Program-made: the position numbers and the translations under genes
DNA from: an uncultured delta proteobacterium
Lineage (GTDB): Bacteria; Desulfobacterota; Binatia; UBA9968
Assembly (NCBI GenBank): GCA_963760795.1
Contig: CAVXEP010000018.1
Span: 64,183 to 128,182, forward strand
Direction of reading: 5' to 3'
DNA: 64,000 bases
The notes under the pieces: generated by a model
The model's input: the letters and a program-made list of their open reading frames with translations, nothing else
Database searches by the model: none
Told to the model about the DNA's origin: nothing
Shown here: positions 1 through 24,823 of the stretch, in pieces
How positions within the stretch are numbered: the stretch's first letter is position 1
Layout of the letters: the number at the start of each line of letters is the position of its first letter

Positions 1-3000
1 GCAAACTACGGCTGAGTTCGGCGATGGGCAGATCTTGATGAGCAAAGGCTTCCTGCGCTACGGATCGGGTCTGTTGCAAAAGATCGTCGAACGACATCCG
101 CGGCGCTACGCGGGTTCGCAACACCACTGCATTGACGAAGTAGCCGATCAGATTTTCGCGTATGCGGCTGTTGGCGATTTGCCACTAAAGTGCCGATGCA
201 AAGATCGCGGCACCCGGTCAAACGGTAGAGCCACAAGTTTAACGCCGCCACCAGCACGACAAACGGCGTGGTTTTCCGCGCGCGCGCCAATTCGTGAATT
301 GCCGCGCTGACCGCCGCTTTCATATCCATCGACAGCCGTCCGCTCCGCAGTGTCAATTTTTTTCGCCGTTTGCCGACCGCAGGAAACTCGATCGTTGGCA
401 ACGGACCGGCCAACCGCTTCTGCCAAAAGTTGAGTTGATCGTCGAATCCGCCGGTATCCAACATGCGCCGCTGCCATCGACTGAAATCGACGAATTGGTA
501 CGGCAACGCCGCGACCGCCGCGGGCTCGCCTTGAGCAAAGGCTTTGTAAAACGCCACAAGCTCGCGGCGAAACAGCCGCATCGACCATTGATCGGCGATC
601 ATATGATGCATTGTCACCAGAAAAATATGTTCCGCCGCGGCCAACCGCACCAAAGTGACCCGGAACGGCGGCCCCTTGTCCAAGTCAAAAATCTCCTGGG
701 CATCCTCGTGGGAGATCCGCTGCAAGTTCGCTGCTGCGCTTTGGCTCTGGCTTCGCCGCCAAATCGAATCGCCTAAGCGGTACGCGCATTCGGCGCCGGA
801 CGACTTGGACGAGCTGGCCATGGCGCTCGTTTGAAGACCGTGCGCAACACCGCATGGCGCGCCATGATCTTTTCAATGGCACGCCGCAGCGCCGCCTGGT
901 TCAACCGGCCGCTCAGTCGGTACCCGTACGGGAGGTTCAGAAAATCCGCCCCCGACAACAGGTCATCCATGCGCCAGAAAAGGTCCTGAGCCGATGACAC
1001 CGGTAACGCACCGCCTTGTATGGCTCGACGGCAGGATTGGCGGCAGCGCCGCGCGCTCGCCTTTTTCGATCCGAGCAGCGACGCCGGCAACCGTCGGCGC
1101 ATCGAAAAACTCGCGCACGGAGAACTCGGCGCCAAATGCCGCGCGCAGCCGCGCGACTATCTGCATCGCCAATATCGAATGGCCACCGAGCTCGAAGAAG
1201 TCATCGTCGACGCCGATCCAGTCTAAACCCAGCCCTTCGCGCCAGATCGCGGCAACTTTCTCTTCGGTTTCGTTGCGCGGACCCACCAGCTTCGATTCAG
1301 CCGCGCGCTGGTGCGCCTGTGAGCTCCGGCAGCGCGCGTCGATCGATTTTGCCGTTGGGCAGAAGCGGTATGCGCTCCAACCGAACAAACCCCGCCGGTA
1401 CCATGTAAGCCGGCAGCATTTGCTGGAGATATTCGCGCAGCTCACGGTCGGTCGGCGGCATCTGAGGAAACAATGTACGCCACCAACGACTGTCGCCAAT
1501 TTTGCATTGGTCGCATCGCACCGCTGGCATCGGTCTGCAGCGGTCACAACACAGTCGTCGATCCTTGGATGACTGCGCAGCGCCGCTTCGATCTCGCCCG
1601 GTTCAACCCGCTGGCCGGCGAATTTGATTTGATTATCCGCGCGGCCGAGATATTCGAGATTGCCATCGGCGCGGTAACGCGCCAAGTCGCCGGTGCGAAA
1701 CAGCCGGGAGCCCGGATCGGCGCTGAACGGATTGACGACGAATTTTTCCGCGGTCAGTTCCGGCCGGCGCCAATAGCCCCGCGCCAAGCCGTCGCCGCCG
1801 ACATACAGTTCGCCGATGACGCCGACTGGCACGGGCTGGCGCTGCGCGTCCAGAAGATAACACCGTGGTGTTCGAAATCGGCCGGCCGATGGCCACCGTC
1901 TTCCCCGAAGTCCGGCCGTCATATTCAAAACAGCTTGCGTCGGCGGCGACTTCCGCCGAACCGTAGAGATTGAGCAACACCGCCTTGGGATGACTCTTGC
2001 GAAACCGCTCTGCGAGTTCAGTGCTCAGCGCCTCGCCGCTGCTGGTCCAGAGCTTTAGCCGCGGCAATTTAACCGTCAGATTGACGCCATCGTCGAGAAA
2101 GGCTTTTAGCAGCGACGGCACCAAGACAACACGGCTCACCCGCCGATGGGCGAGAAACTCGATCAGCAAATGGGGATCATGGGCGGTGTCATCGTCAGCG
2201 ATGGTCAGAGGAACGCCTTGCAGCAGCGGTCCGAATATTTCCCACACCGAATCGACGAAACTCAATGACGTCTTGCTGCAACAGACCTCGCCAGGACGAA
2301 ACGGATAGCGCCGCCACATCCAGTCACAACGATTGACCACGCCGCGATGAAGCCCGACCACGCCTTTAGGCAAACCGGTGGAACCTGAAGTGTAGATGAG
2401 ATAAGCGGCGCTTGCCGCCCTGGACAGTACTGTGGGATTCTCATGACTCTGGCCGGCGAATAGATCGGCATCGTCGAGACAAACCAGCGAAACATTCGCC
2501 TGGGAAATTGTGCCGGCGAGCTCTCGCTGGGTGAGCAAAAGGTCGATTTCAGCGTCAGCGACCATGAATTCCAAGCGCGCGTGCGGATAACTTGGATCGA
2601 GTGGCACATAAGCAGCGCCGGCTTTGAGAATCCCGAGCATGCCCACGACCATCTCAAGCGACCGCGCGACCAGCAGCCCGACGGGCTTGTCGGCGCCAAC
2701 GCCACGACCACGTAAAAAATGCGCCACGCGATTGGCATGCCGGTTGAGTTCGGCGAAGGTCAACGTTGACGATTGGAACTCTAGGGCAACGGCGTCGGGC
2801 GTGCGCGCGACTTGGGCCTCGAAGAGCTCGTGAATGCAGCTCTGGCTCGGATAAGCTGCCGCGCTGTCGTTCCATTCGACTAAGCATACGCCGCCGCTCG
2901 TTGGCACCGAGCAATTCTAACGCGCCGATAGCGCGATCGGGATTAGTGACAATATCATCGAGCAGCGGCGAAAAATGTCCCGCCATGCGCTCGATGGTCG

Positions 3001-4427
3001 CGGCGTCGAACAAATCGCTAGGCGTACTCGAAATAACCGAGCAACCGGCCGCCGCGCTCGCGCAAATAAAGCGAGAGATCGTACTGCGCCGTAGCGTTCT
3101 CCACTTCCACCGGGTCGATATCTAATCCTTCCGGCACCGCCCAACGGTTCGGCGTGTTCTGCAAAACAAAGAAAGCTTGAAACAACGGCTGGCGATTGAG
3201 CTCCCGGCGCGGCTTGAGTTCCTCGACCAGTTTCTCGAACGGGATAGCCTGGTGCGCGTAAGCATCGAGACAAACTTCGCGCACCCGCCGCAAATAGTCG
3301 CGAAAGCTTGGCTGGCCGCTCAGATCGCCGCGCAGAATCAAAGTGTTGACGAAGAAGCCGATCAGCCCTTCGCATTCGGCGTGAGGACGATGGGTCACCG
3401 CGGAACCCACGGCGATATCGTCCTGGCCCGAGTAACGATGCAGCAAGAGCTGAAACGCCGCCAACAGCACCATGAACTGCGTCGCTTTCTCCTGCGCAGC
3501 CAGGCGATTGAGCGACGCCGTTAACGATGGTGAAAAATTTATCGGGTAGCGTCCACCGCGAAAACTTTGCCGCACCGGCCGGGGCCGGTCGGTGGGCAGA
3601 TCGAGGGCTGCCACGCCATCCAGCTGTTTACGCCAGTACAGAAGTTGCTCCTGAAGCGGCGCCGTCTCCAAACGGCGGCGCTGCCAAATGGCAAAGTCAC
3701 CATATTGAATCGGCAATTCGGCCAAGGGGGATACTTGTCCAGCGGCGAAGGCCACGTAAAGTTGCCAAAGTTCGCCGACGAGAATTCCCATGGACCAGGC
3801 ATCGGCGACCAAATGATGGGTAGTTAGAAGCAAAATATGCTCAGCATCGTCGACTTGCAGTAAGCGCGCGCGCAGCAGTCGCCCCGCCGCCAGATCGAAG
3901 TAAGTTTCCGCTTCCAGCTTAATGCGCCGGCGCAGTTCGTTGTCACGTCGGGCGCCGGAAAGCCGACGCAGATCTGTTACCCGCAGCAACCTTGTGGCGT
4001 CGGCAACCGGAACTTGCATCGGTATGCCGTCGATCGTGCAAAACCTCGACCGGAGCACCTCATGGCGCCGGACAATCTCGTTGAGACTCGCGGCGAGAGT
4101 CTGGCGATGGAGCGGACCGCGTAGGCGGAACCCGCGGCATAAGTTGTAAACCGACCTTTCCGGCTCCAGTTGCGTCAAGAACCACAGACGTTCTTGGGCC
4201 AACGACAAAGGTGCCTCTACGGCTGTCCTGCGGCGCGGAACGGACGGCGCAACGCTTAAAGCACCGGCGCGAAGCCTCGTTAGCAGCTCGGCTTTTCGCG
4301 CGGCGATGGCTGCGCGCAGCTCATCATGCAGCGCGCCCTTGGGTGCGTTGATGCGCAGCTTATCGCCATCGGCGGATATCGCGATATCGAGCGCACGCAA
4401 CTGCGCGATGAAGTCCTCGGTATCTAT
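1..4427 (-). CDS. NRPS subunit 3: beta-hairpin (TubC-type) docking domain-C-A-T-C, frameshifted, continues past left edge
   Basis: Joined ORFs 3018..4400, 1633..2907, 963..1928, 773..1135, 6..821. Motifs: [12 protein letters not shown] docking domain, [49 protein letters not shown]. Confidence 0.9.
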
Positions 4428-7400
4428 ATCTCGATCTCCTCGCGCTCGCCGCCGCCAACCGCCACCGGCTCCACGTTCAAATTCAACGATGTCAGCGAGC
4501 GCGCCAACGCCGCCACCGTCGGCGCCGCGAGAAAGGCGCGTAACTCGATACCGACGCCGAAGTCATTTTTAATCCGCACCGCGGCTTGCGCGGCGAGCAA
4601 AGAATGGCCGCCGAGGCGAAAGAAATTATCCTCGACGCCGATCCGCTCTCGGCCCAATACCTCGGTAAATATCTCGCACAGCTTGGCTTCGACCTCAGAA
4701 CGCGGCGCGATGGCCGCAGCGCTCGACTGGGCGCGCGATTCCAGCACCGGCGGCAACGCGTCGTAGTCGAGCTTGCCATTGGGCCCCAGCGGCAGCCGGT
4801 CTAGCAGGACGAAATAACCCGGCACCATGTAGTCCGGCAGCTTGGCGGCAAGATAGGAACGTAAAACGTCGATCTCGCTTTCCCCTGCTTCGCTGGCGAC
4901 GACGCAAGCAACTAACCGTTTATCGAATTTTGGATTTTGGATTTGGGATTTTGGATTGTCGGATTCAGGAGTTGGGAAGTCTCTTGCGATCACCACTGCG
5001 TCGAGCACCGTCGAATGTTGTTTGAGCGCCGTTTCGATTTCCGCCAGCTCGACGCGGAAGCCACGGATGTTGACGCGCCGGTCGGATCGGCCGGCCCACT
5101 CGACATTGCCGTCGGGCCGATAGCGGGCGAGTTCGCCGGTACGATAGAGCCGGTCACGTCCGTCCCCGATGAATGGACTTGCGATAAACATCGCGGCGCT
5201 GCGCTCGTCGTCGTCCAGATAGCCCAAGGCCAAATGCGGGCTGCGCACATAGAGTTCGCCCAACTCACCGATGCCGCAAAGTCGCCGGCGCTTGTTTAGA
5301 ACCAGTAACTGCACGTCCTTGATACCGCGCCCCAACGGCAGCGGCCGCGATGACTGGTCAGCGGCGTCGAGGGTCTCGCCGCCAATCTCATAGTAGCCGA
5401 CGGCGCGCTGGGTCTCGGTGGCGCCGTAAAAACTGCCGATCACCGCCTTTGGCGCCAATCGGTGCATGCGCCGCACGTCGTCGCTGGTCAAGACATCGCC
5501 GCCGAAAAAGATCCGGCGCAGCGCCGGCAACGGCCGCTCACCGCCGGCTAAAAGCAACTGGCCCAGCGCCGGCGTGAGATGCAAAACCGTGATGCGATTT
5601 TCGTCCAACCATTTTGCCAGTAAGTCCGGCGCCCGGGCGGTGCGATCGTCGGGAATGTAAAGCGTCGCGCCGAGCGCCAGCGCGGTAAATAGGTCGCGAT
5701 GCAGATGACTGTAGGCCAGGCCGGAGAGCATGGCGAAGCGATCGCTCTCACGCAACTCGAAGGCGTCCGCGCTGCCAGGGCAGAAAATGCGTCATCGGCC
5801 CATGACCGCAGAGAACGGCTTTGGGTTCTCCGCTGGAGCCGGATGTAAAGGCGATATAGGCTGGATCGCTGCGCCGCTACCGGCACCGAGACACGGGCCG
5901 TTCTCGCTATGCGCCAGTGCTGCGATAATCGCTGCTTTGCCGCGCGCTAGAGTCATGTGAAATTTGACGTCCAATGCCTTCAGACAGCCGGCCAATTCCG
6001 CCGCGAGTTCGGCCGTGCCATCGAGTTTGATCCAAGCCCTAGGCCGAGCAATTCTCAGGTAATCCAGTGAGCGTGCCGCCGGGTACGCCGGATCGAGAAT
6101 CAAAAAGCTTGCGCCGGTTTGAAGAATTCCCAACAGGGCAACGACTAACGACGCATCGCGCGCAGCGTAGATCGCCACCACGTCCTTGGGTTTCACGCCG
6201 CCGGCACGGAGCGCGCTGCTAAGCCGCGCGGCGGCCTGATCAAGCTCGGCGTAGCTCCAACTCTCACCGCCCTGAACTAGCGCAGTTTTTGCCGGCGCAT
6301 GGCGCGTTTGCTCGGCGACCAGTTCATGAATCGCCCCCTCCCAGCGGTCATCGAGCACCGCCGTCGGATCGGGCAGCAACCCCTGCGCCGTTTCGCCAAC
6401 TAGTGAAAGCTCCTCAATCGCCAGCTCAGGACAGCGCAGCGCTTGCGCGAGGATCAGTTCGAATTGTTCGAGCACGGCAGCGATTCGCTCCGGGCGGTAA
6501 AGTTCGACATTGTAATCCACCGTGAGTTCCACGCTGCCAGCGATTTCCGGCGCCGACAGCACCAAATCGAATTTGGCGCCGGGGGCGCTTGCCATTATCT
6601 TGTCGATCTTGCAGCCAGACAGCGAAAACCTGCGCTCCGACAGGTCGGCGACATTGAAGAGAATATCGAACAGCGGATTGCGGCTGGGTGCGCGCGCCGG
6701 ATTGACCTCTTCGACCAATTTTTCAAACGGCAACTCTTGATTGCTGTACGCGTCCAAGCAAACTTCGCGAACTCGGCGCAGCAGGCCAACGAAACTCGGA
6801 TTGTCGCCAAGTTGAAGCCGAAGCGGCAGGACGTTGATAAAGAAGCCTATGACGCCTTCCATCGCCGCATGATTGCGCCCGCCAACCGTGGAGCCGATGA
6901 CGACATCGGTCTGGCCGCCGATCCGCGACAGCAACACGCTGAACGCCGCAAGCAAAGTCATGAACGATGTCACGCCCTGTTGACGAGTGAAACGGTTCAG
7001 CGCCGCACTGAGTTCCACAGGCAGGCGCCGTACCAATCTGGCGCCGCGGTAGCTGCGCGCCGCCGGACGAGGAAAATCCGTCGGCATCGATACTGGCGTC
7101 GGCAAACCGGCGAGATTACGCTTCCAGTAATCCAGCTCGGCAGCACAGGCCGGTGAGGCTAGCCACTGCTGCTGCCAAGCAGCGTAATCGGCAAATCGAA
7201 GCGGCAATGGTGCGGCTAACGCGACTTCCGTACGGCGATAAGACTCATAGCTCAATGAAAGTTCGCGAAAAAAGATCGCCAGAGAGGAACCATCGGCGAT
7301 GATATGATGAAAGTTCAAGATCAGCAGATGATCCTGCTCCGCCAGTTTGACCAAGTGAGCACGCCACAGCGGCGCCTGTGCCAAATCATAGGGCGTGCGA

Positions 7401-10400
7401 GCAACCAGGTCCGCCAGCCGACGCCATTCCGATTCCGCTTGGTCCTTGCGGCAAACCGGACAAATCGGTGATCGGCAGCGCAATCGTTATCTCCGCGACA
7501 ATTTCCTGGCAGGGTTCGCCGTCAACTTCTTTAATGGCGGTGCGCAGCGCCTCGTGGCGCGCAGTGACCAGATTCAACCCCTGCGCCAATGCTGCAACGT
7601 CGAGATCGCCGTCGATGCGAAATACCGCCGGTATATGGTAAGCAGCGAGATCGCCGTCAAGTTTTTGCAAGAACCACAAACGGCGCTGGGAAAATGACAG
7701 CGGCAAATTGCCGCCACGCGCGATTCGCGCCATCGGCACCACGCCCGTCCCTCTCTGATTACGGCGCAATATGGCAATTTCATCGGCGAGCCCGGCGACG
7801 GTGGGCCGTTCAAAGATTTTCCGCAGCGCCAGATCGACGTTAAAATGGCCGCGCAGGCGCGCCACCACGCGGGTCGCGAGCAGCGAGTGGCCGCCCAGCT
7901 GGAAAAAGTTTTCATTGCACGCCGAGCCGGTCGCCGTTTCAACACTTCGCGCCAAACCTGCGCCACCAGCTCTTCGATCTCGTCGCGCGGCTCGATAAAT
8001 TCACTGGGCAGCGCTGGTTCGCGGTCCATCCGGAGCAGGCAATGCCCGGCGGTCGACTTTACCGTTGGGCGTCAGCGGCAAGGCTGGCAAAGACATGAAA
8101 ACAGCCGGCACCATGCAGCTGGGCAACTTAGCGCTCAGGTAGCCACGCAAATCATTTTCCGCCAACGTCACGCCGTCTCGGGGCACCAAGTAGGCGACCA
8201 ACTCACTCTCGCCCTCGCCGCCGGTGGCCCCGGCGACGACCGCCGCATCCCGCACCGCTGGATGCAGTCGGAGAACGCTCTCAATCTCGCCCAATTCGAT
8301 GCGGTAACCGCGCAGCTTCACCTGGTTATCGGATGCGGCCGAGGTACTCCACGGTGCCGTCGGCCTGATACCGAGCCAGGTCTCCAGTGCGGTAAATCCG
8401 TGCACCGGGTTCACGGCTAAAGGGATTCGCGATAAAGCGCTCCGCGGTCAAGTCCGGCCGATTCAAATAGCCGCGCGCCACGCCGGCGCCGCCGATGTAA
8501 AGCTCGCCGACCACGCCGATCGGCACCGGCTGCATTACGCCGTCTAGAATATAGAGCTGGGTATTCGCCAGGGGCCGGCCGATGGGAACGGTAGCGCCAA
8601 CACCCTCGACGCGATGCATCGTCGACCAGATGGTGCTCTCGGTGGGGCCATAGAGATTCCACAACTCGCCGCAGCCACGTAAGCGATCGGCCAGAGTCGC
8701 GCGGGCAGCGCTTCGCCGCCGCAGAGAATTTTAAATTCGGCCATCGCCCTGCCAGCCGGCTTCGAGCAGCAGACGCCAGGTCGACGGCGTCGCCTGCATC
8801 GTCGTCGCGCCGGAACTCTTCAACCGTTGCGCCAAACGCTCGCCATCGCGCGCCTCGTCACGGCTGGCGACCACTAATTTGCCGCCCGTGATCAACGGCA
8901 ACAAGATTTCCGCCGCGGCGATATCGAAAGAAATCGTCGTCACCGCCAGCCAGACATCGGCTTTGGCTGATTTTCAAATGGCGCTGCATTGAGAGCAGGC
9001 AATTGACCAACGAGCGCTGTTCGATCTCGACGCCTTTAGGATGGCCGGTCGACCCCGAAGTGTAAATTACGTAGGCGAGATCGCGCGGTGAAGACCCGCG
9101 CTTAATATTCTCGCTGCTATGGGTTTCGATATTTCGTCGCTCACGATCTAATAAGATGACGATGGGGTCGAGAATGGAGGATTGAGGATCGAGGATCGCT
9201 ATCATCCATTTTCCATCCTCGATCGTCGGCGATACTCTTCTGGCTAATCAGCACCGACACCTGCGCGTCGTCTAAAATAAATTCCAGCCGTTCTCTCGGA
9301 TATTCCGGGTCGAGCGGCAAATAGGCCGCGCCGGCTTTGAGCACGGCGAGCAGTGCAACGACCATGTCGACCGAGCGCTCCAGGCATAGGGCGACGACGC
9401 AGTTTCGCCCGACGCCAAGTTTTGTTAAATAGCGCGCCAAGCGGTTGGCGCGGCGATTCAGTCGGCCGTAGGTCAAACGCTCCGGGCCGCACTCAAGCGC
9501 CAGCGCGCTCGGCGTGCGCTGCGCTTGGCGTTCGAACAATTGATGCACACAAGCCTTCGGTACAACCGCGCGCGTTCGGTTCCACTCGATCAACAAACGG
9601 CGGCGCTCCTTTTCGCCCATCATCGGCAGTCGGGCAATCGACCGATCTGGCTCGGCGACGATCGCGTTCAGCAGCGTGAGGAAATGTTGCAGCATGCGCG
9701 CGATGGTGTCGTCGGCGAATAGTGACCTGCGATATTCAACAAAGCCGCTGAGCCGGCCGTCGCGTTCGCCCAACGCCAGACTGAGATCGTATTTGGCCCC
9801 GCCGCTGTCGCAGTCGATGGCCTCGCTGCGAATGCCGTGCAGGCTCAATTCGGCGGGCAACTGGTTTTGAAACGTGAACAGCGTCTGGAAAATCGGCGTG
9901 CGGCTGGGATCGCGCGATTGCTTCAACTCATCGACCAGCCGCTCGAACGGCAGCTCCTGATGCGCCAGCGCCTCTTGCAAGTTAGTCGCGCAGCCTTGCC
10001 AGCAGTTGGGTAAATGTCGGATCGCCGGCGAGATCGCTGCGCAGCGCCAGGGTATTGACGAACGAGCCGATGAGATTCTCCAGCGCTGGATGGTCGCGAT
10101 TGGCCACCGGGAAACCGACAACGAGATCGTCCTGCCGCGTGTAGCGCCAGAGCAGGACGTTGAACGCCGCCATCAAGGTGACGAACAGCGTGTTCGACGC
10201 CCTGGCGCTCAGTTCTTTGAGCCCGGCGGTGAGCGCTTTGTCGAGTATGATTTTCTGCCGCGCGCCTTTTAAGCTCGCGGCTGCCGCCCGCGGCTTATCC
10301 GCCGGCAGATCGAGAACCGGCAACACGCCGCCCAACTGTTTTTTCCAATAGGCCAGTGGCGCCGCCAAGGCTGCATCGTCGAACCCCCGGCGCTGCCAAA

Positions 10401-11074
10401 GCGCGTAGTCGCCATACTGCACCGGCAACTCGGCGAGGGAAGCGGCTTCGGCTGCGCCGCCGTTGGCGTAAAGCGCTTCGAGTTCACGGTAAAACAGATC
10501 GAGCGAGCGGCCATCGCACACCGCCTGGTGCGCGACAAAAACGAAAACATGGTCTTGGCGATCGAGTTGAAGCAGCGTAACGCGCAGCAGCGGTTCGGCG
10601 CTAAGATTGAAACAATGGCCAGCTTCGGCGCCCACCCGCAGGCCGATTTCCTCGTCACGGAGATTGACGCGCGATATGGCGCAAATCGAACATTTGCAGC
10701 GCCGGCGCGGTCAACGGCAAGACCTGCTGCAGCGGCCGATCGCCGTCATTCGCCAACACTGTGCGCAGCACTTCGTGGCGCTGCACGATACGCTGCACGC
10801 AACGGCTGAGCAGCGTGACGTCGAGCGCCCCCTTGAGACGCCAAGCGCGGGCGACGTTGTAAACCGCACTGGCCGGCTCCCACTGCTGCAAAAACCACAA
10901 GCGCTCCTGAGCGAATGACAGCGGCACGACTGCGCCGCTGGGGCGCGGCGTGATTGCGCTCGCAGCACCAGCGTCTGAATCAGTACTTTTGTCCCGCAGC
11001 CGCGCCAGTAAACGCAGCTTGGCCGCGCCCAGCGCGGCGCCGGACTGGGGCTTGGAGTGGCGAGTCGTGTTCAT
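4424..11074 (-). CDS. NRPS subunit 2: C-A-T-C-A-T with C-terminal docking motif EEIEI, frameshifted
   Basis: Joined ORFs from 10655..11224 down to 4424..5755. Motifs: [44 protein letters not shown] twice, HHIIADGSS. Confidence 0.9.
4924..4966. repeat. Heptamer tandem repeat (GGATTTT-like) inserted in frame in an A domain
   Basis: ttttggattttggatttgggattttggatt encodes NPKSQIQNPKF. Confidence 0.75.
9168..9225. repeat. Heptamer tandem/inverted repeat (GAGGATC-like) inside an A domain
   Basis: gagaatggaggattgaggatcgaggatcgc...atccattttccatcctcgatc. Confidence 0.7.
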
Positions 11075-11078
11075 TCTA

Positions 11079-13010
11079 TTAATCGTCACCCAGCGCCCGG
11101 TAAATCTGCTCGGGCGCCATGCCATCGATCTCGAGCATGAGTCGCGCGCTTTCCGCCGCTGCGCCTGGGCAACGTTCTTGAGCCGTGATCCATGCCGCGA
11201 GCTGCGCCACGGTCGGCGTGGCAAATAGTGTTTTCAATGGCTGGGTCAAGGCAAACAGTTGGTTCACCCGTGCGACAATTGCGTTGGCCAGGAGCGAGTC
11301 GCCGCCAAGGGCGAAGAAATCGTCAGCGCTGCCCAATTCCTCCAACTGCAAGACCTCGCGCCAAAGCTGCACCAGGACGGTCTCCAGTTGGTTCCGCGGC
11401 GCGGCATAAGGAACATCGAGGGCGGCGCGCGAATGGCGCGCCTCCGGCAATCCACGCCGGTCGATCTTGCCGCTGCGGGTCATCGGCAGGCGGGCCAATT
11501 GAACAAACGCGGCGGGAATCATGTAATCGGGTAATTTTTCTTGCAACGCGCCGCGGATTTGACTCACGTTCATGGCGGTACCGGCCCGCAAGACGACGTA
11601 GGCCAATAACCGCGCGCCGCCATCGCGCTGCTGCCGTGCCACCACCGCCGCTTGTACGATGCCGACGATCTCGAGCAAGGCGATTTCAACTTCGGCAAGC
11701 TCGACCCGGTGGCCTCTAATTTTGGCTTGCAAATCTTTTCTGCCGACATGAACCAGACAACCATCCGGCCGCAAATAACCTAGGTCGCCGGAAAGAAATA
11801 TGCGCGCGTCGCTGCCGGCGGGATCGGTTAAGAACTTGGCTTGGGTCAATTCCGGACGACGCCAATAGCCGCTGGCGAGAAAGCGGCTCTTTACCGCGAT
11901 TTCACCGACAGTGTTTGCCGCCACCGGCTTTCCCGCTTCGTCCAGCACGGCGATTTCGTAACCGTCCAAGGCAAAGCCAACCGGCACCACCGGTTCTTCG
12001 ACGATGCTATTCTTGTCGATGAAAAAATAGCTGGCGGTCTTGGTCTCGCTGATGCCAAGCCGGTTGACCAACCGGCAGCCGTCGATGAAGTGTTGCTTGA
12101 ACAACTCGATGTCGGATTGAAACAGCGCCTCGCCGCCGAGATGAACCAAGCGAACACTAGGGAAAGTGGCGTGGTGGTCGACGTTGCGCAGCGCGTGGCG
12201 AAACACACTGGCGACACAAGTGAAGAACCGTGATCTCATCACCGATCAGCCAGTCGGCCAAACCGGCCAGTCCCTCTTCCTTGAGTTCCAACAGACACAG
12301 CGCCGCGCCATTGAGCAATCCCAGGAGCGCATCGGAAGTGGCGCCGACGTTGTGCGAGCGCAGCAGGCTGATGCGATCCGACGGTGTAATTGCCAACGCT
12401 TTGGCCTTGACCAGAATGCTATGCAACTCGCTGCCATGGTCCGACATGACGCCTTTGGGCTCGCCGGTGGAGCCGGAAGTGTAGTTGATATAGGCGATGG
12501 CGCTGGGCGCGATCGCCAACCCGAGATTGCTGTCGGCGAGATCGTCCTTGAGCGCGTCGAGATTGATCACGATAACATCGCCCCCGGCAAGCTCACGGGC
12601 GCAGCGATAGTGCTCGCTGTCGGTGACGATCGCGCGCGCGCCCTGCGTCTTCAATCAGCCGGGCGGCCCGCGCTTGCGGTAGTTTGTCGTCGATCTGGAC
12701 AAACGGCCGGCCGGTCTTGAGCACCGCCAGGTTCGCTGTGATCAGCGCGCTTCCGTGTTTGAAGAGCAACGCGATCGGTTCGTCGCCTGCCGGCGATGCA
12801 GTCAAGATCGCACGGCCCAGCCGGTTCGCCGCGCGATTCAGTTGATCGTAGGTCAGCGCCTGATTCAAAGTTTTCAGGGCGAGGCGCGCGCCATGGAGCG
12901 CCACCTGCTGTTCGAAGCGGCCGGTGAGCGATTGCGCTGCCCCAGAGATACCGCGGGAACAGATTCTCAGACGATCGTTTTCGCTGTGGTTTGGCCAGCC
13001 GTCGAGTCAT
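11079..13010 (-). CDS. NRPS subunit 1: stand-alone A-T loading didomain, frameshifted
   Basis: ORFs 12593..12904, 12157..12654, 11079..12242. Motifs: YTSGSTGEPKG, SGDLG, KIRGHRVE, FFALGGDSLLA. Start position approximate. Confidence 0.85.
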
Positions 13011-13052
13011 GAGCGCTAAAAAACTTTCGGGGATTTTTTCCGGCGGCGACGG

Positions 13053-16000
13053 CTAACGAAACCGAGTTGAATCACTTTCGCCCATAGTCAGGAAGCCAGT
13101 CATCGCCAGAGCGGCGAAAAGTTCCCGCGCGGCGCTCGACTCTTGGCGCGCCTGCTCAAGGTTTCCCGCCACCCCATAGACTTGGGCAAGCGCCGCATGA
13201 CAATGCGCCTGGAGCGGCCGCATCGCCATATCACTGGCAAGACTCAACGCTTCGCGATAGTGCCCCTCGGCCTGCTCGATTTGTTTAACGGTGAGGCGCA
13301 TGGCGATATCGCCGCGCAGCTTGAGCGCCAAAGCGCCATGACCCGGCTCTTTGTGTTGTTTGGATAACTCACAGGCACGATCCGCCAAGACCATCGCTTC
13401 GTCGATGCGATTGGCGCTCAAGTAGGCGTCGCTCAGCCAAGCGAGATTAAGCGCCAAGAACCCAGCCCGGCCCACCGCGGCGGAATCTTCGATGCTTTGC
13501 TCGAGTAGCCGCAACCCTTCAGCCTGACGGCCGGCACGGACATAAGCGTAACCCAGTCGCGGCGCAACCAAGGGCACATAAATCGCGATATGTTTCTCCT
13601 CGCACAGAGTCATCGCCCGCTCCAAGACTGGTATCGCTTCGTGAAAGTCACCCTTGAAAAGATACAGAAAACCGAGACTGGCGTTGACGTGAATCTGACT
13701 CACCGGATGATTCGCCTCATCGGCGATCTGCACGCCCTCGGCGCCGCGCTCCAGCCCTTCGGCAAAATCCCCGGTCATCGCCAAGGATTGCAACAAATGG
13801 CTGCGAAAGATCACCGAAAGAATCACCGTGGTGCCGAAACGTTGGTGGCGCAAAGCCCCCTCGACGCTTTGCATGCCGCTGCGCAGCACCGTCGCGGCGC
13901 GCCCATACTGGGCGACTTTGTTGTAAGCCACTCCGGTGTAGTAACTGGCCACCGCCCGCAATGCGGTGTCCTCTTGGGTGGCCGGCATCGCCAAGGCACG
14001 CTGGCCGGCTGCGATCGCCCGCTCGGGATCGCCGATCAAACCGTAATAACTATTTTGAAAATTGAGCACCCGCGCCAAGCGCCGGCTGTCGCCGATCCGT
14101 TCGGCGAGCGTCTCGGCTTGCGTCAGATGGTCACCGACCCGCGGTAAATCGCCGCGCAGAAACAGCACGTTGCGGCAGTCCAGGTGCAGATCGATGCGCT
14201 GCTCAAGTCGCGCCGCGGTTTCCGGCAGATGGCCGAGCGCTTCAAAGGCGCGGGTATAGTTATCAAAGGCCTCGCCGAAAGCCGAATGGCTCATCGCCTT
14301 GGCGCCCGCTTGGCTCATATAGTCGGCGGCTTTTTCCCATAACTCGCCGCGAAACGCGTGGTCCGCGAGCGCTTCAATCTCGTCGAGCGGATTGCCGCCG
14401 CTTAGCCGCTCGATCGCCGCCGCAGTCTGCGCATGCAGCGCTGTCTTGCGCTCGTGCAATAATGCGCCGTACACCACTTCGTTGATCAACGCGTGGGTAA
14501 ATTTGTATTCCAACTTGGGATATAAGTTGCTTTCATAAAGAAACTCGCCGGTTTGTAAATGGCTCAAGGCGCCGCGCAGTTCTTCTTCCGGCAATCCCGT
14601 GATGCCATGGAGCAGCCGCTCGGGAACGATCATGCCGATGACCGCGGCGCTTTGCAGTAGTTGTTTCTCCAGCGCCGGCAAGCGATCGATGCGATCGGCG
14701 AGAACCGTTTGCACGGTGTTGGGAATACGAATGTTCTCGACCTGCACCCCCGGGCGATAGTTTCCCTTCGCGCCAATCAGAATGCCCGAAGCGGTCAAAG
14801 AGCGCACGCTCTCTTCGACGAAGAACGGGTTACCATCCGTCCGGCTGATCAGCAGCTGTTTGACCGTCGCCAGATCGCCATGAGCGCCCATCAGCGCATC
14901 GAGCAACTCTTCCGCGCCTGCCGCCGTTAATGGATTGAGACGTAAACGGCTGTAGTGCTCTTTATTGGCCCATGCGTGGCTGTAGCCCGGCCGGTAATTG
15001 ACCACTAAGCAGATCCGCCCGCTCGGCAGCCGATCGACTAAAGCGTCGAGAAACGCTTGGGTCTCGCTGTCGATCCAGTGCAAGTCTTCAAAAACTAAAA
15101 GCAGCGGTTTCACGCCACTCGCTTGTAAGAGCACGCGCACTAAAGCCGCCAGGGTCGATGCACGCCGATCCGGCAAATCCATGGCGCGGTAGTTCGCCGC
15201 CGCGACCGCGACCGCCGGGAACGTTTCGCTCCAGCGCGACAGCAAATCGCCCGGCTCGGTCGATGCATCCGGCAGCGCATCCAGCAGCGCCAGTATCGGC
15301 GCCACCGCCTCGCTCAGATTTACGTCAAGTGTCTGCATCTCTTCGGCGACCCGCGAGCGCACAGCATCGGCGTCGTCAGTTTCGTGCAGGTTAAAAAATG
15401 TCCGCAGCAATTCGATCACCGGGAAATAGGGCGTCGCCTTGCCATAGGACACCGACGGCGCTTCAAGCACGCGCCACTCGGAGGAGACGTGATGATCGAG
15501 AAACTGGCGCAGTAAACGGGACTTGCCCATGCCGGCTTCGCCGACCACTGCCAAGATCCGGCCATGACCGGCGGCAGTTTGCGCCAACATTTGCTGGGCA
15601 AACGCAATCTCGGTCCGGCGTCCGACGAAGGGTGATAGTCCACGCGCCTCCGCCGCTTGCAAGCGATTACGCGCCGCGGTGGCTCCGGTCAGTTCAAAGG
15701 CATCGATGGCAGTGGAAAAGCCCTTGACTTGGAGCGCGCCCAACGGCCGCACCACGACGAAACCTTCTACTTCGCGCAAGGTGTCGGCGGTGATCGCGAT
15801 CGATCCCGGCCCCGCCAGGGATTCCATGCGCGCGGCGAGATGCGTCGTTTGCCCGAGCGCCGAGTAGTCGATGTTGAGATCGTTGGTCAGCGAGCGGACG
15901 ACCACCTCGCCGGAGTTGATGCCGATGCCGATCTGCAGCGGCGTCGGCTGGGGCAACGGGCCATCCGTGCCGCCACCACGGCGCAATTCCGCTTGCATCG

Positions 16001-16505
16001 CCAGCGCCGCGTAGCATGCCCGCAGGGCGTGATCTTCATGCGCCAGGGGCGCGCCAAACAGCGCCATGATGCCATCGCCCAAAACTTGATTGACCGTGCC
16101 GTCGTAACGATGCACCGCGGCCATCATGACCCGCAGCACTGGATCGAAATGTTTACGCACCTCCTCCGGATCGAGTTTCTCGATGAAACTGGTCGAACCG
16201 CGGATGTCGGCGAACAAGACCGTCACTCTTTTACGTTCGCCTTCCATGAAGCGGCGCGACGCGAGCATGCGATCCGCGACGTTATCGGTTGTAACGGCTG
16301 CAGCCGCAGCAGCCGGCGCCGCCGCGTTGACTGCATCACCAAGCCGGGCGCCGCACTTTTTGCAGAATTTCGCGCCTCTGCGATTGCTTTCGCCGCATTG
16401 CCCGCAGTTGGCATCGAGCGGCGCGCCGCATGCGTCGCAAAACTGCGCATCCGCCGCGTTGCCATTCTGACAAGCGCGGCAAATTATTCTTGGCTCCTCC
16501 GCCAT
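13053..16505 (-). CDS. Double zinc ribbon-class III adenylate/guanylate cyclase-AAA ATPase-TPR protein
   Basis: Four CxxC pairs, VLFADIRGST, GDGIMALFGAP, Walker A GEAGMGKS, Walker B LLLVFEDLHW, helical C-terminal repeats. Start set at MAEEP. Confidence 0.92.
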   Translation of the reverse strand: MAEEPRIICRACQNGNAADAQFCDACGAPLDANCGQCGESNRRGAKFCKKCGARLGDAVNAAAPAAAAAAVTTDNVADRMLASRRFMEGERKRVTVLFADIRGSTSFIEKLDPEEVRKHFDPVLRVMMAAVHRYDGTVNQVLGDGIMALFGAPLAHEDHALRACYAALAMQAELRRGGGTDGPLPQPTPLQIGIGINSGEVVVRSLTNDLNIDYSALGQTTHLAARMESLAGPGSIAITADTLREVEGFVVVRPLGALQVKGFSTAIDAFELTGATAARNRLQAAEARGLSPFVGRRTEIAFAQQMLAQTAAGHGRILAVVGEAGMGKSRLLRQFLDHHVSSEWRVLEAPSVSYGKATPYFPVIELLRTFFNLHETDDADAVRSRVAEEMQTLDVNLSEAVAPILALLDALPDASTEPGDLLSRWSETFPAVAVAAANYRAMDLPDRRASTLAALVRVLLQASGVKPLLLVFEDLHWIDSETQAFLDALVDRLPSGRICLVVNYRPGYSHAWANKEHYSRLRLNPLTAAGAEELLDALMGAHGDLATVKQLLISRTDGNPFFVEESVRSLTASGILIGAKGNYRPGVQVENIRIPNTVQTVLADRIDRLPALEKQLLQSAAVIGMIVPERLLHGITGLPEEELRGALSHLQTGEFLYESNLYPKLEYKFTHALINEVVYGALLHERKTALHAQTAAAIERLSGGNPLDEIEALADHAFRGELWEKAADYMSQAGAKAMSHSAFGEAFDNYTRAFEALGHLPETAARLEQRIDLHLDCRNVLFLRGDLPRVGDHLTQAETLAERIGDSRRLARVLNFQNSYYGLIGDPERAIAAGQRALAMPATQEDTALRAVASYYTGVAYNKVAQYGRAATVLRSGMQSVEGALRHQRFGTTVILSVIFRSHLLQSLAMTGDFAEGLERGAEGVQIADEANHPVSQIHVNASLGFLYLFKGDFHEAIPVLERAMTLCEEKHIAIYVPLVAPRLGYAYVRAGRQAEGLRLLEQSIEDSAAVGRAGFLALNLAWLSDAYLSANRIDEAMVLADRACELSKQHKEPGHGALALKLRGDIAMRLTVKQIEQAEGHYREALSLASDMAMRPLQAHCHAALAQVYGVAGNLEQARQESSAARELFAALAMTGFLTMGESDSTRFR

Positions 16506-16576
16506 CTTTGCGTATTTAACGCAATTCCAGCGACGGCGCAAAGAGATTGGCCGGTAATAAGAGATTCGCCGCGAAT

Positions 16577-17638
16577 TTAGGATTCTTCGCGATACAGCCG
16601 CAAGGCATCGAACAAAGGCCGGTCGGAGACGGAGAAAAGAATCGTGTCCTCGGAACTGGATGTGTTGAGAAAACGGTGCCAGTGCCAAGTCGGCACATTG
16701 AAGCAATCGCGCTCCTGCCACGTCAAGTCGCTGGCAACGGCGCGCTGCTTGCCGATCATGGCCACTCCCTGACCGCGCACCACGTGATAAACGGTATTGC
16801 CGGTGTGGCGATGCGGCTGCGTCTGTTCGCCGGGACCGAGCAGTTGCATGCGGCAGCTCATCGTCGCCGTAGTCGGACCACCGTCCTGCGGATTGCGGAA
16901 CTCCAACACGGCGCCGTCGAATGGATCGCGCTCTCCCGACAGCGCCAGATCTTTCAATGCGTTATAAGTTTCCGCCCAGCGGTATTTCACCGGAAACGGC
17001 CCCGGCCCATCGAGCACGCCCTGCGCCCGCAGCGGTCCCAGTTGCTTCATGTGAAAGCCGTCAGGTTTGGTGATCGGCTGCGAAAAACTTTCTGGATACC
17101 GCTGGTTTTCCCAATTATCGAGATACTGCATCAGTGCGGTGTCCATGGCGGTAAACCAAATCGCCGGCTCCGATCCGGTATTGGTCGTGCCATGCCAAGT
17201 CCAACTCGGCTGCGTCAGCAAATCCCCCGGCTCCATGAACTGCTGCTCGCCCTCCGCGGTGGTATAAATGCCGCTGCCTTGAATCGCCAAGTAGACTGAA
17301 GTCGCCGTATGGCGGTGCGAGTCGGTCACTTCACCGCCGTTGACATGCTGCAACATGGCGGCAAAAGTGCGCGACACCCCGAGCGGAAGGATATCGGCAG
17401 AGTTGGTCATATGCAGGGTGCGCATGCGCATGACTTCATCGAGCGGCGCCAGTTCCCCGGCTTCGAGCAACAGCGGCGCCATCTCGCTCCAGCGCCATAC
17501 CGATGGGCGAATTTCTTCCTGCTTCACCGCGCCCCGTTCGCGCTGCCATGCGCCGCGCAGAGAGCTTTGCTGGACTCTAGAGTTTAGGGTTTCGAGTCGA
17601 TCGATAAGGACCTTAGAATTAGAAATGGTATCGGCCAT
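16577..17638 (-). CDS. Gentisate 1,2-dioxygenase-like bicupin (paralogue 1)
   Basis: SHRHT...QPSWTWH and PHRHT...VPTWHWH cupin motifs; SDRPL C-terminus. Confidence 0.85.
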   Translation of the reverse strand: MADTISNSKVLIDRLETLNSRVQQSSLRGAWQRERGAVKQEEIRPSVWRWSEMAPLLLEAGELAPLDEVMRMRTLHMTNSADILPLGVSRTFAAMLQHVNGGEVTDSHRHTATSVYLAIQGSGIYTTAEGEQQFMEPGDLLTQPSWTWHGTTNTGSEPAIWFTAMDTALMQYLDNWENQRYPESFSQPITKPDGFHMKQLGPLRAQGVLDGPGPFPVKYRWAETYNALKDLALSGERDPFDGAVLEFRNPQDGGPTTATMSCRMQLLGPGEQTQPHRHTGNTVYHVVRGQGVAMIGKQRAVASDLTWQERDCFNVPTWHWHRFLNTSSSEDTILFSVSDRPLFDALRLYREES

Positions 17639-17715
17639 GATAAACTCCCCGCGAAAAGCGAAACGGCGAACAATTTTTCGCCTGTCGTGAAACCGATCGT
17701 TCGCGAGATTCGCCG

Positions 17716-18861
17716 CTAATTCAAATGAAAAAAGTTCACCGCGTTATCGACCAGCATCTTCTGCTTCTCGTCTTCCGGCACGCCGGAAAAGATGTCGGCG
17801 ATGACCCGCTTGGAATTGGGCCAGTCGCCGGCCGAGTGCGGGAAGTCATTGCCCCACATGATCTTATCGACCCCAACGTCGTAGCGCATGCGCAGACCGA
17901 TGCGGTCATAGATAAATCCCCAATAAAAGTGTTCGCGGAAATAGGCGCTCGGCTCTTTGGCCAACGGTTTCAGGTCAAAGTAACGCTGCATCCAGTGCTT
18001 GCTGCGTTTGTAAACATCGTCGAGCTGATCGTAGTAGTAAGGCAGCCAGCCCATCTGCGTCTCCGCCCAATAGATTCTCAGGTTGGGAAAGCGGTCGAAG
18101 ACACCGGATAGCAATAACTGCACGGCATTCAAACCGCTATTGCCGCCGAAGCGCGTCAGTACCCGGATCGGGTCGCCGCCGAAGGCAACCTCGCCTGGGT
18201 CTTTGTCGTACTTGAACAACGGCCCATCCGGCAGTCCCATCGCCACATGCACCGACAGCGGCATGTTCAGATCCAGCGCCGCGGCGTAGAATCGGTCGTC
18301 CTCCAACGTGGGATAGGACTTGCCGCTCGGAAACGTGTTGAGCATCATGCCTTTCAGTCCGGCCTTGGCGCAGTACTCTAACTCCTTAACCGCAGCATCG
18401 ACGGAATGAGTCGGCAGCGCGCCCAACGCAATCAACCGATCGCGGTTCGCTGCGCAGTATTCTTCGGCCAAGAAGGTATTGTAGGCGTGAACCGTTGCCA
18501 GATAGGCGTCGTCATTTTTGATGCCGCGCCAAAAACTCAGGTTGCCAGCCGATGTGTAAAGAATCTCACCGTCGACGCCGTCCTTGTCCTGCTCTTTTAA
18601 ACGTTGCTCCGGCGATCCCGCCCCTTCCGACCCTTCGTAGCTAACCCCCCTAAGCTCATGCCGCTCATAGGGCTTACCGGCAATCGCCAAACCGACCACG
18701 TAAAGCGGCCGCCCTTCGATGATGATGCCGTCCCCACCGTTGGCGAGTTTGACCAGCCTGGGCGCGCGATCGCGATACTTCGCCGGTATGCGATCAGTCC
18801 AACGCGACGGTGCAATTTCTAAATGTGAGTCGGCTGAGAACAAGCGATACTTACTGGGCAT
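17716..18861 (-). CDS. Amidohydrolase_2 family protein
   Basis: SADSH, GVFDRFP, WGNDFPH. Confidence 0.9.
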   Translation of the reverse strand: MPSKYRLFSADSHLEIAPSRWTDRIPAKYRDRAPRLVKLANGGDGIIIEGRPLYVVGLAIAGKPYERHELRGVSYEGSEGAGSPEQRLKEQDKDGVDGEILYTSAGNLSFWRGIKNDDAYLATVHAYNTFLAEEYCAANRDRLIALGALPTHSVDAAVKELEYCAKAGLKGMMLNTFPSGKSYPTLEDDRFYAAALDLNMPLSVHVAMGLPDGPLFKYDKDPGEVAFGGDPIRVLTRFGGNSGLNAVQLLLSGVFDRFPNLRIYWAETQMGWLPYYYDQLDDVYKRSKHWMQRYFDLKPLAKEPSAYFREHFYWGFIYDRIGLRMRYDVGVDKIMWGNDFPHSAGDWPNSKRVIADIFSGVPEDEKQKMLVDNAVNFFHLN

Positions 18862-18890
18862 GATCTATCTCCCTATGGCTTTGAGAAAAC

Positions 18891-18920
18891 CTTGAACCGT
18901 TGAACCTTGAACTTTGAACG
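18891..18920. repeat. TTGAAC(C/T) short tandem repeat
   Basis: cttgaaccgttgaaccttgaactttgaacg. Confidence 0.65.
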
Positions 18921-18922
18921 AG

Positions 18923-20110
18923 TCAGCGCGGCGTCTGCAACCATTTCTCCGGCTCCAGCCCCGGCCGATCTTTATACTTCGCGGCGATCGCGCGCACTTT
19001 CGGATGATCCGCCGCGGTTATTCTCCCGTCCTTGTAGACGTAGTTCTCGCCGATCTTAAGATTGCCGCCGCGCAATTCTGCAGAGATATGCATCAAGTAG
19101 GGAAACGTCTTGCTGCGCCGGCTGTTGCCCATGTGGAAGTGGAAACTGCTCCAGTGATGGTGCTCGATGAAGTGGCGGTACGGCGCGTTGGGGCACTGGT
19201 GCGGCTCCAGGATCGCCGACGGATGGACGCCGCCGTGAAAACCGCGCACTTCGTAGGCCGCGTCGTCTAAGTATTTTGAAATGAATTGGTAGAAGCGCGT
19301 CAGAGTTTCTGCTTCGGCGCCGCCTTCGAATTTTTTGATCTGGCCTTTTTCGATGAACACTTTCACCGGCTGCTTGAACGGACAAGGCACGCCGATATGG
19401 CGCGCCCAGATCACGCCGATCTCGTTGATGATGCCGACCCCCTCTGCGTCTCGCGCTCGGATCGACGACCAGACGCCTTCGGGAAATGGCCGGTAGACGC
19501 CGATGTCGCGATAGTGCGCGTAGTCGTCCATGTCTTCCGGTTTGACGACATAACCTTCGATGTGCGAACCGTTGGGATGGGTCATCACCCACTTGGCGCC
19601 CGGCACCGCCAGCGCATTAGCCTGGACCCGGATCTCAGAGACCAATTCGTAAGGCGTCAAGCCCCAGTTGCTCGTCAGCAGCGAGCCGGTCGTCGCCATG
19701 TTGCGCGCGTATGGGATGTTGTGCTCTTCGAGAATATCGGCGGTCTCGCGCAGCTCTTCTTCGAAGGTCAGATCGACGGCGTTGCTGATGATGCAGTCGG
19801 CGCCCTTCATGGCGGCGGCGACGATCTTCGGCACACGCCACGCTTTGCCGGGATCGGCGCCCTCGCCCCAAAGCACCATCGGCCGATAAGGAATATCACA
19901 CCACACCACCGTCGCATCGGCGCCGCGCTGGACGATCGCCGAGTGCAGCCACGAGATGGTTTCCGAGTCGACGATATTGACGCCGCCATACATGCCATCG
20001 TTGCCCGCGACCAGCAGCACATTCATCCCCGGCTTCACTTTGGCGCAGTTGTCGACCATGTCGCCGACGGCGATCGCCGCTTGTTTGGGAATCAACGGAA
20101 CAGAGCTCAT
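18923..20110 (-). CDS. NicX/M29 aminopeptidase-fold metalloprotein (2,5-dihydroxypyridine dioxygenase-like)
   Basis: CAKVKPGxxVLL N-terminus, FPEG, IEKGQIKKFEGG, FHFHMGN, MHI...YKDGR layout typical of the M29/NicX fold. Function inferred. Confidence 0.55.
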   Translation of the reverse strand: MSSVPLIPKQAAIAVGDMVDNCAKVKPGMNVLLVAGNDGMYGGVNIVDSETISWLHSAIVQRGADATVVWCDIPYRPMVLWGEGADPGKAWRVPKIVAAAMKGADCIISNAVDLTFEEELRETADILEEHNIPYARNMATTGSLLTSNWGLTPYELVSEIRVQANALAVPGAKWVMTHPNGSHIEGYVVKPEDMDDYAHYRDIGVYRPFPEGVWSSIRARDAEGVGIINEIGVIWARHIGVPCPFKQPVKVFIEKGQIKKFEGGAEAETLTRFYQFISKYLDDAAYEVRGFHGGVHPSAILEPHQCPNAPYRHFIEHHHWSSFHFHMGNSRRSKTFPYLMHISAELRGGNLKIGENYVYKDGRITAADHPKVRAIAAKYKDRPGLEPEKWLQTPR

Positions 20111-20127
20111 GAATATCTCCAAAACAC

Positions 20128-20213
20128 TTGTTCAAAAGTTCAAGGTTCAAGGGTTCAAGGTCAGATCGGACTCGGACACCGATTGAACCTTGGAACTCTT
20201 GAACCATTGAACG
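20128..20213. repeat. Inverted pair of GTTCAAG/TTGAACC tandem arrays
   Basis: gttcaaaagttcaaggttcaagggttcaagg...ttgaaccttggaactcttgaaccattgaacg. Confidence 0.7.
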
Positions 20214-20218
20214 AAATT

Positions 20219-21190: not shown

Positions 21191-21299
21191 AATGAACCTC
21201 CGTAAAAGTGGGGAATATTTTCTTAACTCATAGCTGGAAACAGTTGCCATTGTAAAGCCCAAGTTGCGCCGGGATTCGACGAATTTGCTACAACCACAT

Positions 21300-21344
21300 T
21301 GAGTTAACGTTATGAACGACTTAAACGGTTTGAACGATTCGAAC
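21300..21344 (+). repeat. 9-bp TTGAACGNY tandem array
   Basis: atgaacgacttaaacggtttgaacgattcgaac. Confidence 0.7.
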
Positions 21345-21358
21345 CCCGGAGGATAAAA

Positions 21359-22382: not shown

Positions 22383-22600
22383 GCGACCTACCGAAATCTG
22401 ATCCTTCAAGCCGCGGCAGCTTGGCACACAGGAACTCCTTGCATTGGAATCGGCGCTAGCCTAGCCACGTCGGCTTTCGATTCTCGCTCATCGGCCACGC
22501 GACCTTGGAACTGTTTCTTGTCCTCAACGGGCACGACATTGGCGCATCCGATACTTCGCTCGAACCGTACTAAGACCTCCCAAAGATTGATATGACAAAT

Positions 22601-22876
22601 ATGAATCCTCACATTATCGACGTTGCCGGCTGGCTCCCAGCGATCATTTTCCCCGTCGCAACATTGATCCAGCTCATCGCCCTTTTGCGAAGTAACAGCC
22701 TTAAAGCTATAAGTCCGATGACCTGGACGGTGTTCGGCATCGCGAACATCTCGGTCTACATTTACACCGAGAAATATCTCGCGGTTCAAACGATTGTCGG
22801 CTTCTTAGGCACGGCGCTGTTGGATTTCATGATCGCCGCGATGGCAATCAAAGGACGCGCGCCAGAGAAGACATGA
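22601..22876 (+). CDS. Small 3-TM membrane protein, SemiSWEET/PQ-loop-like
   Basis: Three hydrophobic helices and an IS..TW motif; PQ motif divergent. Confidence 0.55.
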   Translation: MNPHIIDVAGWLPAIIFPVATLIQLIALLRSNSLKAISPMTWTVFGIANISVYIYTEKYLAVQTIVGFLGTALLDFMIAAMAIKGRAPEKT

Positions 22877-22900
22877 TTCGACTGAGTCAGGGTGCGAAAG

Positions 22901-22936
22901 ATTTGAACTTTTTGAAGGCCTTGAACGATTTGAACG
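22901..22936 (+). repeat. 9-bp TTGAACGNY tandem array
   Basis: ttgaactttttgaaggccttgaacgatttgaacg. Confidence 0.65.
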
Positions 22937-22946
22937 CCCCATGGCT

Positions 22947-24713: not shown

Positions 24714-24823
24714 CTTTCACCGCCGACAAGAAATATATCGTTGCTTTAAAGAGTTGCCAGCATCACGGGTTTCACTCTATGCCTGCTACACTTGAACGGC
24801 TTGAATCCTGCAGGACAAGCGCT

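Follow-up and report, generated by a model that had tools for sequence, protein, structure and literature searches.

The first 13,010 nucleotides of a 64,000-nucleotide stretch of DNA from an uncultured delta proteobacterium (GenBank assembly GCA_963760795.1, contig CAVXEP010000018.1, positions 64,183 to 128,182; hereafter the window, meaning the whole 64-kb stretch) encode a genuine modular (type I) nonribosomal peptide synthetase (NRPS) assembly line on the minus strand. As an NRPS the cluster is of a known type, and several of its domains are unusual. Its three genes are untranslatable as sequenced because one-base insertions break their reading frames. Taking the evidence as a whole, we cautiously lean towards a genuine NRPS cluster of a conserved family in a Binatia-like soil bacterium, in which the inserted bases are consensus errors of a long-read assembly.

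A three-gene assembly line on the minus strand

The long frames that bear NRPS domains in window positions 1-13010 all lie on the minus strand and are fragmented into many pieces. Domains were called with Pfam on 62 minus-strand stop-to-stop segments of this portion, 26 of which gave matches. The families AMP-binding, AMP-binding_C, PP-binding and Condensation follow one another in colinear order and give adenylation (A), carrier (T) and condensation (C) domains arranged as A-T / C-A-T-C-A-T / docking-C-A-T-C over three co-directional genes. This is the arrangement that a preliminary description of the sequence had read by eye; the strand, which it had left out, is minus. The module order is identical in L001, a locus of a metagenome-assembled genome labelled 'uncultured delta proteobacterium', which is 91.55% identical to the window at the DNA level over window positions 7-14559. 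L001 was the only true relative among 79 loci found by a scan of a genome collection. The other 78 were rejected as orthologous clusters. Each has at most one of the four signature motifs, and with 39-52% identity they rank as generic NRPS relatives. The features of the NRPS portion and of the adjoining gene are as follows.

13053-16721, minus: regulator-like gene, 1222 aa, intact, directly upstream of gene 1 and co-directional; zinc ribbons, adenylate/guanylate cyclase, AAA_16 ATPase and TPR (Pfam)
11079-13010, minus: gene 1, loading A-T; ATG at 13010, stop at 11079; AMP-binding, AMP-binding_C and PP-binding; about 640 aa if read through
Gene 1 domains: A1 about 12916-11860; T1 about 11378-11186
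4424-11074, minus: gene 2, C-A-T-C-A-T; ATG at 11074, stop at 4424
Gene 2, module 2: C1 about 10930-9590 (HQAVCDG); A2 about 9536-8057 (Gly-type); T2 about 7922-7778
Gene 2, module 3: C2 about 7709-6382 (HHIIADG); A3 about 6316-4771 (Lys2-like); T3 about 4684-4498
5898-7444, minus: insertion-free tract inside gene 2, within a 564-aa open segment (5795-7486)
1-4400, minus: gene 3, TubC_N docking-C-A-T-C; TTG start at 4400; 3′ end beyond window position 1
Gene 3 domains: TubC_N about 4418-4271; C3 about 4217-2884 (HHLVADA); A4 about 2823-1769 (VD-type); T4 about 1262-1067; C4 1009-1 (HHMIADQ)

The carrier serine motifs of T1 to T4 are GGDSL, GGHSL, GGHSL and GGHSI in both the window and L001. 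The condensation motifs of C2, C3 and C4 conform to expectation, whereas that of C1 deviates. The regulator-like gene scores 290.7 bits against TIGR03903, under the cut-off of 705.75, and its 3′ part is kept adjacent to the NRPS genes in L001.

One-base insertions interrupt all three genes

The reading frames of a modular NRPS are expected to be uninterrupted, and those of the three genes are not. Following along the window the frame that best matches 182 reference NRPS open reading frames (ORFs), we found 14 intragenic frame changes, 13 of which are +1. Gene 1 carries one-base insertions near 12961, 12640 and 12227, gene 2 has six net +1 frame changes in addition to compensated clusters, and gene 3 has at least six frame changes. 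Alignment of the window with L001 revealed 49 indel events, 46 of them within the NRPS genes; single extra bases number 30 in the window and 11 in L001. When the indels were polarised by the long open frames of each sequence, the one-nucleotide events resolved into 30 window insertions, 8 L001 insertions and 3 window deletions, or 38 insertions against 3 deletions (p = 1e-8), the window carrying about four times the insertions of L001. The preliminary description had touched on the indels only briefly and treated them as something to correct. They are indeed present, but they constitute the main fact about this copy.

The insertions are tightly confined. Outside the NRPS genes a single frameshift was detected in 51 kb, corresponding to a density ratio of about 118-fold. 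That frameshift lies in an amidohydrolase gene (58361-59318, plus strand), which is split near 58716 by a +1 shift such that the Amidohydro_2 match passes from one frame (profile positions 1-92) to the following one (91-213). At the border itself, three one-base indels relative to L001 fall within window positions 13029-13121, in the 43-nt spacer that separates the regulator-like gene from gene 1 and in the final 23 codons of the regulator. Elsewhere in the overlap with the regulator, about 1.4 kb, there are none.

The inserted bases comprise 13 C, 7 A, 6 G and 4 T. Homopolymer slippage was rejected as their source, as only 7 of the 30 equal a neighbouring base. A methylation or other sequence motif was rejected as well: GCAGC/GCTGC occurs near 7 of the 30 sites compared with 10.7% of positions, an excess that does not convince once the multiple comparisons are allowed for, and no k-mer stands out (the best 5-mer was observed 6 times against 2.8 expected). 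We also considered synonymous alleles retained in tandem: of 24 testable sites, 9 agree with this source where 8.5 would be expected (p = 0.49). It was dismissed as a general source, although it fits two sites that are shared with other assemblies (see below).

A further reading is that programmed +1 frameshifting or four-base decoding at the insertion sites lets the genes be expressed. The predominance of +1 changes would suit such recoding, as would the return of genes 1 and 2 to their starting frames after three and six shifts, respectively. Yet with +1 events alone a return after every third event is automatic, the 30 sites share no common sequence motif, no codon-phase rule was found among them, and the extra bases are absent from close relatives at the same sites. 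We consider recoding extremely improbable.

Origin of the insertions

It is fairly likely that the roughly 30 one-base insertions are consensus errors of a long-read assembly, and because of this the organism's own NRPS genes are probably intact. The principal alternative, which we hold to be rather unlikely, is that the frameshifts are real and that the cluster is a recently inactivated, decaying array of NRPS pseudogenes, with milder decay in L001 and other strains. Non-templated +1 insertions, arising for example from end-joining repair, would then have to dominate, and the insertion-free tract would have been patched from an intact strain by recombination.

The coding content of the window argues for error. 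With gap columns dropped, six stretches totalling 4208 codons contain no stop in either the window or L001; gene 1 alone reads through 638 codons without a stop. Since 3.25% of possible substitutions create a stop codon, 150 neutral substitutions would be expected to produce 4.9 stops (P(0) = 0.008), and 100-300 neutral substitutions would produce 3.2-9.7. Measured against outgroup NRPS proteins, derived replacements number 167 in the window and 137 in L001 (p = 0.096), and at 1684 strongly conserved columns there are 16 deviations in the window and 25 in L001. Over 982 columns in four sequences of the same cluster, the window has 5 private derived changes and the other three have 1, 7 and 16. 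Protein evolution has thus not accelerated despite the roughly fourfold excess of insertions over L001. No large deletions are present, all catalytic and carrier motifs examined are retained, and insertions outnumber deletions so strongly at non-repeat sites that the spectrum, to our knowledge, is unlike known bacterial decay.

Close relatives provide a second line of evidence. Where the window or L001 is shifted, relatives with 96-98% identity have continuous frames. The gene-1 protein P0368 (642 aa), 95-99% identical to the window, is intact and aligns without gaps to the window read-through at 96.2% identity; it lies on the same contig as a 1498-aa protein that is 98% identical to the window. 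Similarly, P0362, P0364 and P0293, which are 96-97% identical to L001, cross the L001 shifts at 2927, 11880 and about 12296, and P0004 crosses four more. The window's own 90% cluster has seven members on five contigs, and their break points differ, leaving pieces of 563, 832, 1498+288, 1931+288 and 2076 aa. The ORFs on short Binatia contigs at NCBI fill their contigs in 10 of 10 cases. To judge from its label, L001 probably belongs to a Nanopore-only data set that was assembled with Flye and given a single Medaka polishing (PMC12313526). The scarcity of stops, the absence of faster protein evolution and the read-through in close relatives together argue against long neutral decay. Frameshifts apart, the features of a decaying pseudogene (nonsense codons, acceleration, deletions and inheritance by close relatives) are missing, with the exception of two shared sites.

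Several observations weigh against consensus error. The foremost is that the insertions end at the NRPS borders, with 30 in 13 kb compared with one frameshift in 51 kb. Random sequencing error does not predict such a restriction, whereas relaxed selection on a dead cluster does; the single frameshift in the flank is also +1. Intact flanks are not peculiar to the window: other long contigs whose NRPS genes are broken carry the flanking VWA gene at full length (731 and 715 aa). Furthermore, some insertion sites are common to independent assemblies. One near 5769 is present in the window, P0124 and P0125, and another near 5312, absent from the window, is present in P0001, P0126 and P0125. These shared sites look heritable, though all four allele combinations occur at the two of them, which requires recombination or recurrence; this four-gamete pattern fits recurrent error too and counts against decay. 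Finally, NRPS substitutions keep a third-position bias, but a weaker one than in the regulator-like gene (2.6/2.0/10.7% by codon position): the ratio of substitutions at codon positions 1+2 to those at position 3 is about 0.45 in the NRPS genes against 0.22 in the regulator. Replacement sites of the NRPS thus appear relaxed relative to the regulator, as decay would have it, and the difference could mask some neutral divergence.

On a related contig of 147,952 nt (P0185, P0371 and P0130), gene 1, gene 2 and the VWA gene (466 versus 731 aa) are all short; breaks are not confined to the NRPS genes there.

The insertion-free tract (5898-7444) is unexpected at the insertion density of the remaining gene 2 (P(0 insertions) = 0.004), and it coincides with the region where the window differs by only 0.5-1% from the cluster-1 proteins. 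This fits a rare strain that obtained a clean consensus only where read depth was pooled with that of co-occurring relatives. It fits equally well a decayed segment that was patched by recombination, a reading to which the mosaic, recombining structure of the population lends itself. By its sequence, the cluster reads as a recombination mosaic. Third-codon-position divergence between the window and L001 is 18-21% in gene 3 (1-4400) compared with 9-13% in genes 1 and 2 and the regulator, and tracts of gene 2 alternate between L001-like, cluster-1-like and third-lineage sequence. We do not take this fine-scale pattern to prove that the consensus is chimeric, given that a third lineage together with recombination gives the same pattern.

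A conserved family in soil bacteria

The cluster belongs to a large, conserved and apparently uncharacterised NRPS family of Binatia and other soil bacteria. We identified 113 relatives of gene 1, about 40 of gene 2 (43 in the motif counts given below) and 8 of gene 3 with conserved pockets, from JGI, ENA, NCBI and Logan assemblies; for near-identical proteins, the public source names point to Candidatus Binatia. Intact members exist for the larger genes as well. Full-length gene-2 relatives include P0002 (2207 aa, 78% identical) and P0127 (2215 aa), and P0249, P0250 and P0271 are intact gene-3 relatives of 1571-1580 aa. Intact orthologous clusters lie on the contig with P0366 and P0127 and on the one with P0374, P0002 and P0284. 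We found no description of this NRPS family in the literature searched on Binatia NRPSs and biosynthetic gene clusters.

Adenylation pockets and predicted product

Pocket residues were read by hand on the read-through translations and on intact relatives, with GrsA numbering. The four pocket calls that the preliminary description had made by eye largely hold. The pocket of A1 is VGSTHGRTVK, with Val235 and Gly236 and no aspartate, in agreement with the preliminary description, which had noted that the aspartate that binds the α-amino group is lacking. Among the 113 relatives (620-675 aa), Val235 is found in 110, Gly236, Gly301 and Arg322 in all 113, and His299 in 112. In keto-acid-activating domains Asp235 is replaced by a hydrophobic residue, and according to a report on them, loss of the aspartate marks a domain that does not activate α-amino acids (PMC13643306). 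Because Asp235 is absent and Arg322 and His299 are conserved, A1 probably loads a small non-amino and likely anionic acid.

The pocket of A2, DIAQLGLIWK, matches DILQLGLIWK at 9 of 10 positions. The latter is the code of 22 of the 43 gene-2 relatives, and we take it to be a Gly code. The preliminary description had likewise called A2 Gly-type. The solved Gly-activating domain of LgrA (module 2) was considered as a check on A2 and set aside as uninformative, its pocket differing from that of A2 in the alignment. About 12 of the 43 relatives form a subgroup with DVWH-type A2 codes, which presumably specify Ser.

A3 has the pocket SHRHFGFRAK, identical in 21 of the 43 relatives and with near variants in most of the remainder. 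The likeness to Lys2 that had been proposed for A3 is supported: scored against TIGR03443, the module of the intact homologue P0002 reaches 898.7 bits and matches profile positions 2-917 of 1390, and a TETQRAV-type motif is present. The score is below the cut-off of 1030.1 and the reductase is absent, so that the module resembles only the A-T part of Lys2. Position 235 is Ser or Asn, hence not acidic, in 40 of the 43 relatives. With Asp235 missing, A3 is unlikely to take an ordinary α-amino acid; by analogy with Lys2, it is plausible that it activates the distal carboxyl group of an amino diacid.

In A4, whose pocket is VDWVTSLADK (FVDSVWE motif), the aspartate is shifted from position 235 to 236. 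Among 23 proteins of 1500-1680 aa, this code occurs in 7 and VDWVISLADK in 1. We assume the Val-Asp pattern to be a signature of β-amino acids (β-Ala-type). The preliminary description had called A4 β-Ala-like. The part of the kasichelin paper that we consulted gives no β-Ala pocket code, and none of six pocket-code strings was found in the literature searched.

The unusual features extend to the condensation domains. C1 (window position about 10400) carries HQxxCDG or HQxxFDS in place of HHxxxDG in at least 36 of 43 relatives; the second histidine is lost, and the loss is conserved. At the other end of the line, gene 3 of L001 runs about 370 nt beyond the window edge and stops after a terminal C domain (HHxxxDQ), with no thioesterase (TE) domain. 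The earlier statement that the window holds no TE or tailoring genes is correct, no thioesterase domain having been found in the 51 ORFs and segments scanned at 13-64 kb. In L001, the gene 3 stop is overlapped by a plus-strand gene for a 599-aa α/β hydrolase (L001 positions 14910-16709), after which unrelated genes follow. The hydrolase gives a weak match to the proline iminopeptidase family, and about 350 of its residues have no family. It is a possible candidate for a release or tailoring enzyme.

These features suggest how the line might operate. A1 would load a small non-amino, probably anionic acid as starter, which C1 (HQxxCDG) would couple to Gly on module 2. Module 3, with its Lys2-type pocket, two pocket arginines kept and Asp235 gone, would possibly activate the distal or side-chain carboxyl of an amino diacid, and module 4 would add a β-Ala-type unit. 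The terminal C domain would then release the chain by transfer to an amine or to water, or by cyclisation. The product structure given in the preliminary description, an acyl-Gly-(side-chain-linked diacid)-β-Ala type polyamide, is hypothetical. A more novel reading, which we hold to be rather unlikely, is that the family produces a small polyamide, so far undescribed, whose four units include three that are not α-amino acids: an anionic starter (Val235/Arg322), a side-chain-activated unit from the Lys2-like pocket, and a β-amino acid, assembled with a C1 domain without its second catalytic histidine and released by the terminal C domain. It weighs against the substrate assignments that they depend on pocket codes whose meanings are assumed, and that the nearest solved Gly domain (LgrA module 2) differs.

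Were the family active, an uncultured soil phylum would hold a source of small non-proteinogenic peptides that is both common and untouched, and A1, A3 and C1 would broaden the substrate and catalytic range of NRPSs. Both here and in related assemblies, the biosynthetic genes are damaged much more heavily than the genes around them, and genome mining that corrects or throws out clusters of this type requires read data to decide. Should the insertions prove real, a dispensable gene cluster would be decaying, unusually, through insertions alone.

Genomic neighbourhood

The remaining 47 kb of the window contain ordinary full-length genes, among them genes for amidohydrolases, bicupin dioxygenase-like proteins, ABC transporters, a UbiD decarboxylase and an RPE65 oxygenase. 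Three bicupin genes, named gentisate 1,2-dioxygenase in public sources, lie at 16577-17638, 21359-22459 and 31341-32402, and a small cupin gene lies at 34420-34866. Within 16577-34866 and 42471-63927 there are at least seven Amidohydro_2 genes, the UbiD decarboxylase gene (53257-54681), seven NMT1-type binding proteins and two Opp/Dpp-type ABC systems. The neighbourhood looks like one of aromatic or small-acid catabolism. On the minus strand at 27864-31159, a CbbQ/NorQ-type AAA protein (298 aa) adjoins the 731-aa VWA protein, which one source names NorD, with no obvious partner enzyme beside the pair. A luciferase-like monooxygenase (36886-37863) has as its neighbour a carotenoid or stilbene oxygenase of the RPE65 family (38206-39747, minus strand), which is full-length and matches profile positions 1-469 of 469.

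Comparison with known systems

The unusual domains compare with their nearest counterparts as follows. Module 3 shares with Lys2 (TIGR03443) a TETQRAV-type A5 region and two pocket arginines. It differs in having no reductase, in being an elongation module between two C domains and in carrying Ser or Asn at position 235 in nearly all relatives.

A1 resembles the keto-acid-activating A domains of the cereulide, cryptophycin and dolastatin 15 type in the replacement of Asp235 by a hydrophobic residue, here valine (PMC13643306). In contrast to them, no ketoreductase (KR) domain follows A1 in the window or in L001, and A1 has an invariant Arg322 and a near-invariant His299. Keto-acid-activating modules have the order C-A-KR-T, whereas A1 belongs to a loading A-T protein, and other non-amino acids are possible substrates.

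LgrA, the linear gramicidin synthetase, is the best Protein Data Bank match of A1, A2 and A3 and belongs to the same fold family of A-T-C modules. This similarity is generic, and the pocket of its Gly domain is unlike that of A2.

Some NRPS lines, a known class, terminate in a condensation domain where a thioesterase would otherwise stand. L001 gene 3 resembles them in its terminal C domain (HHxxxDQ) and lack of a TE; it differs from them in that the gene for the 599-aa α/β hydrolase comes directly after it.

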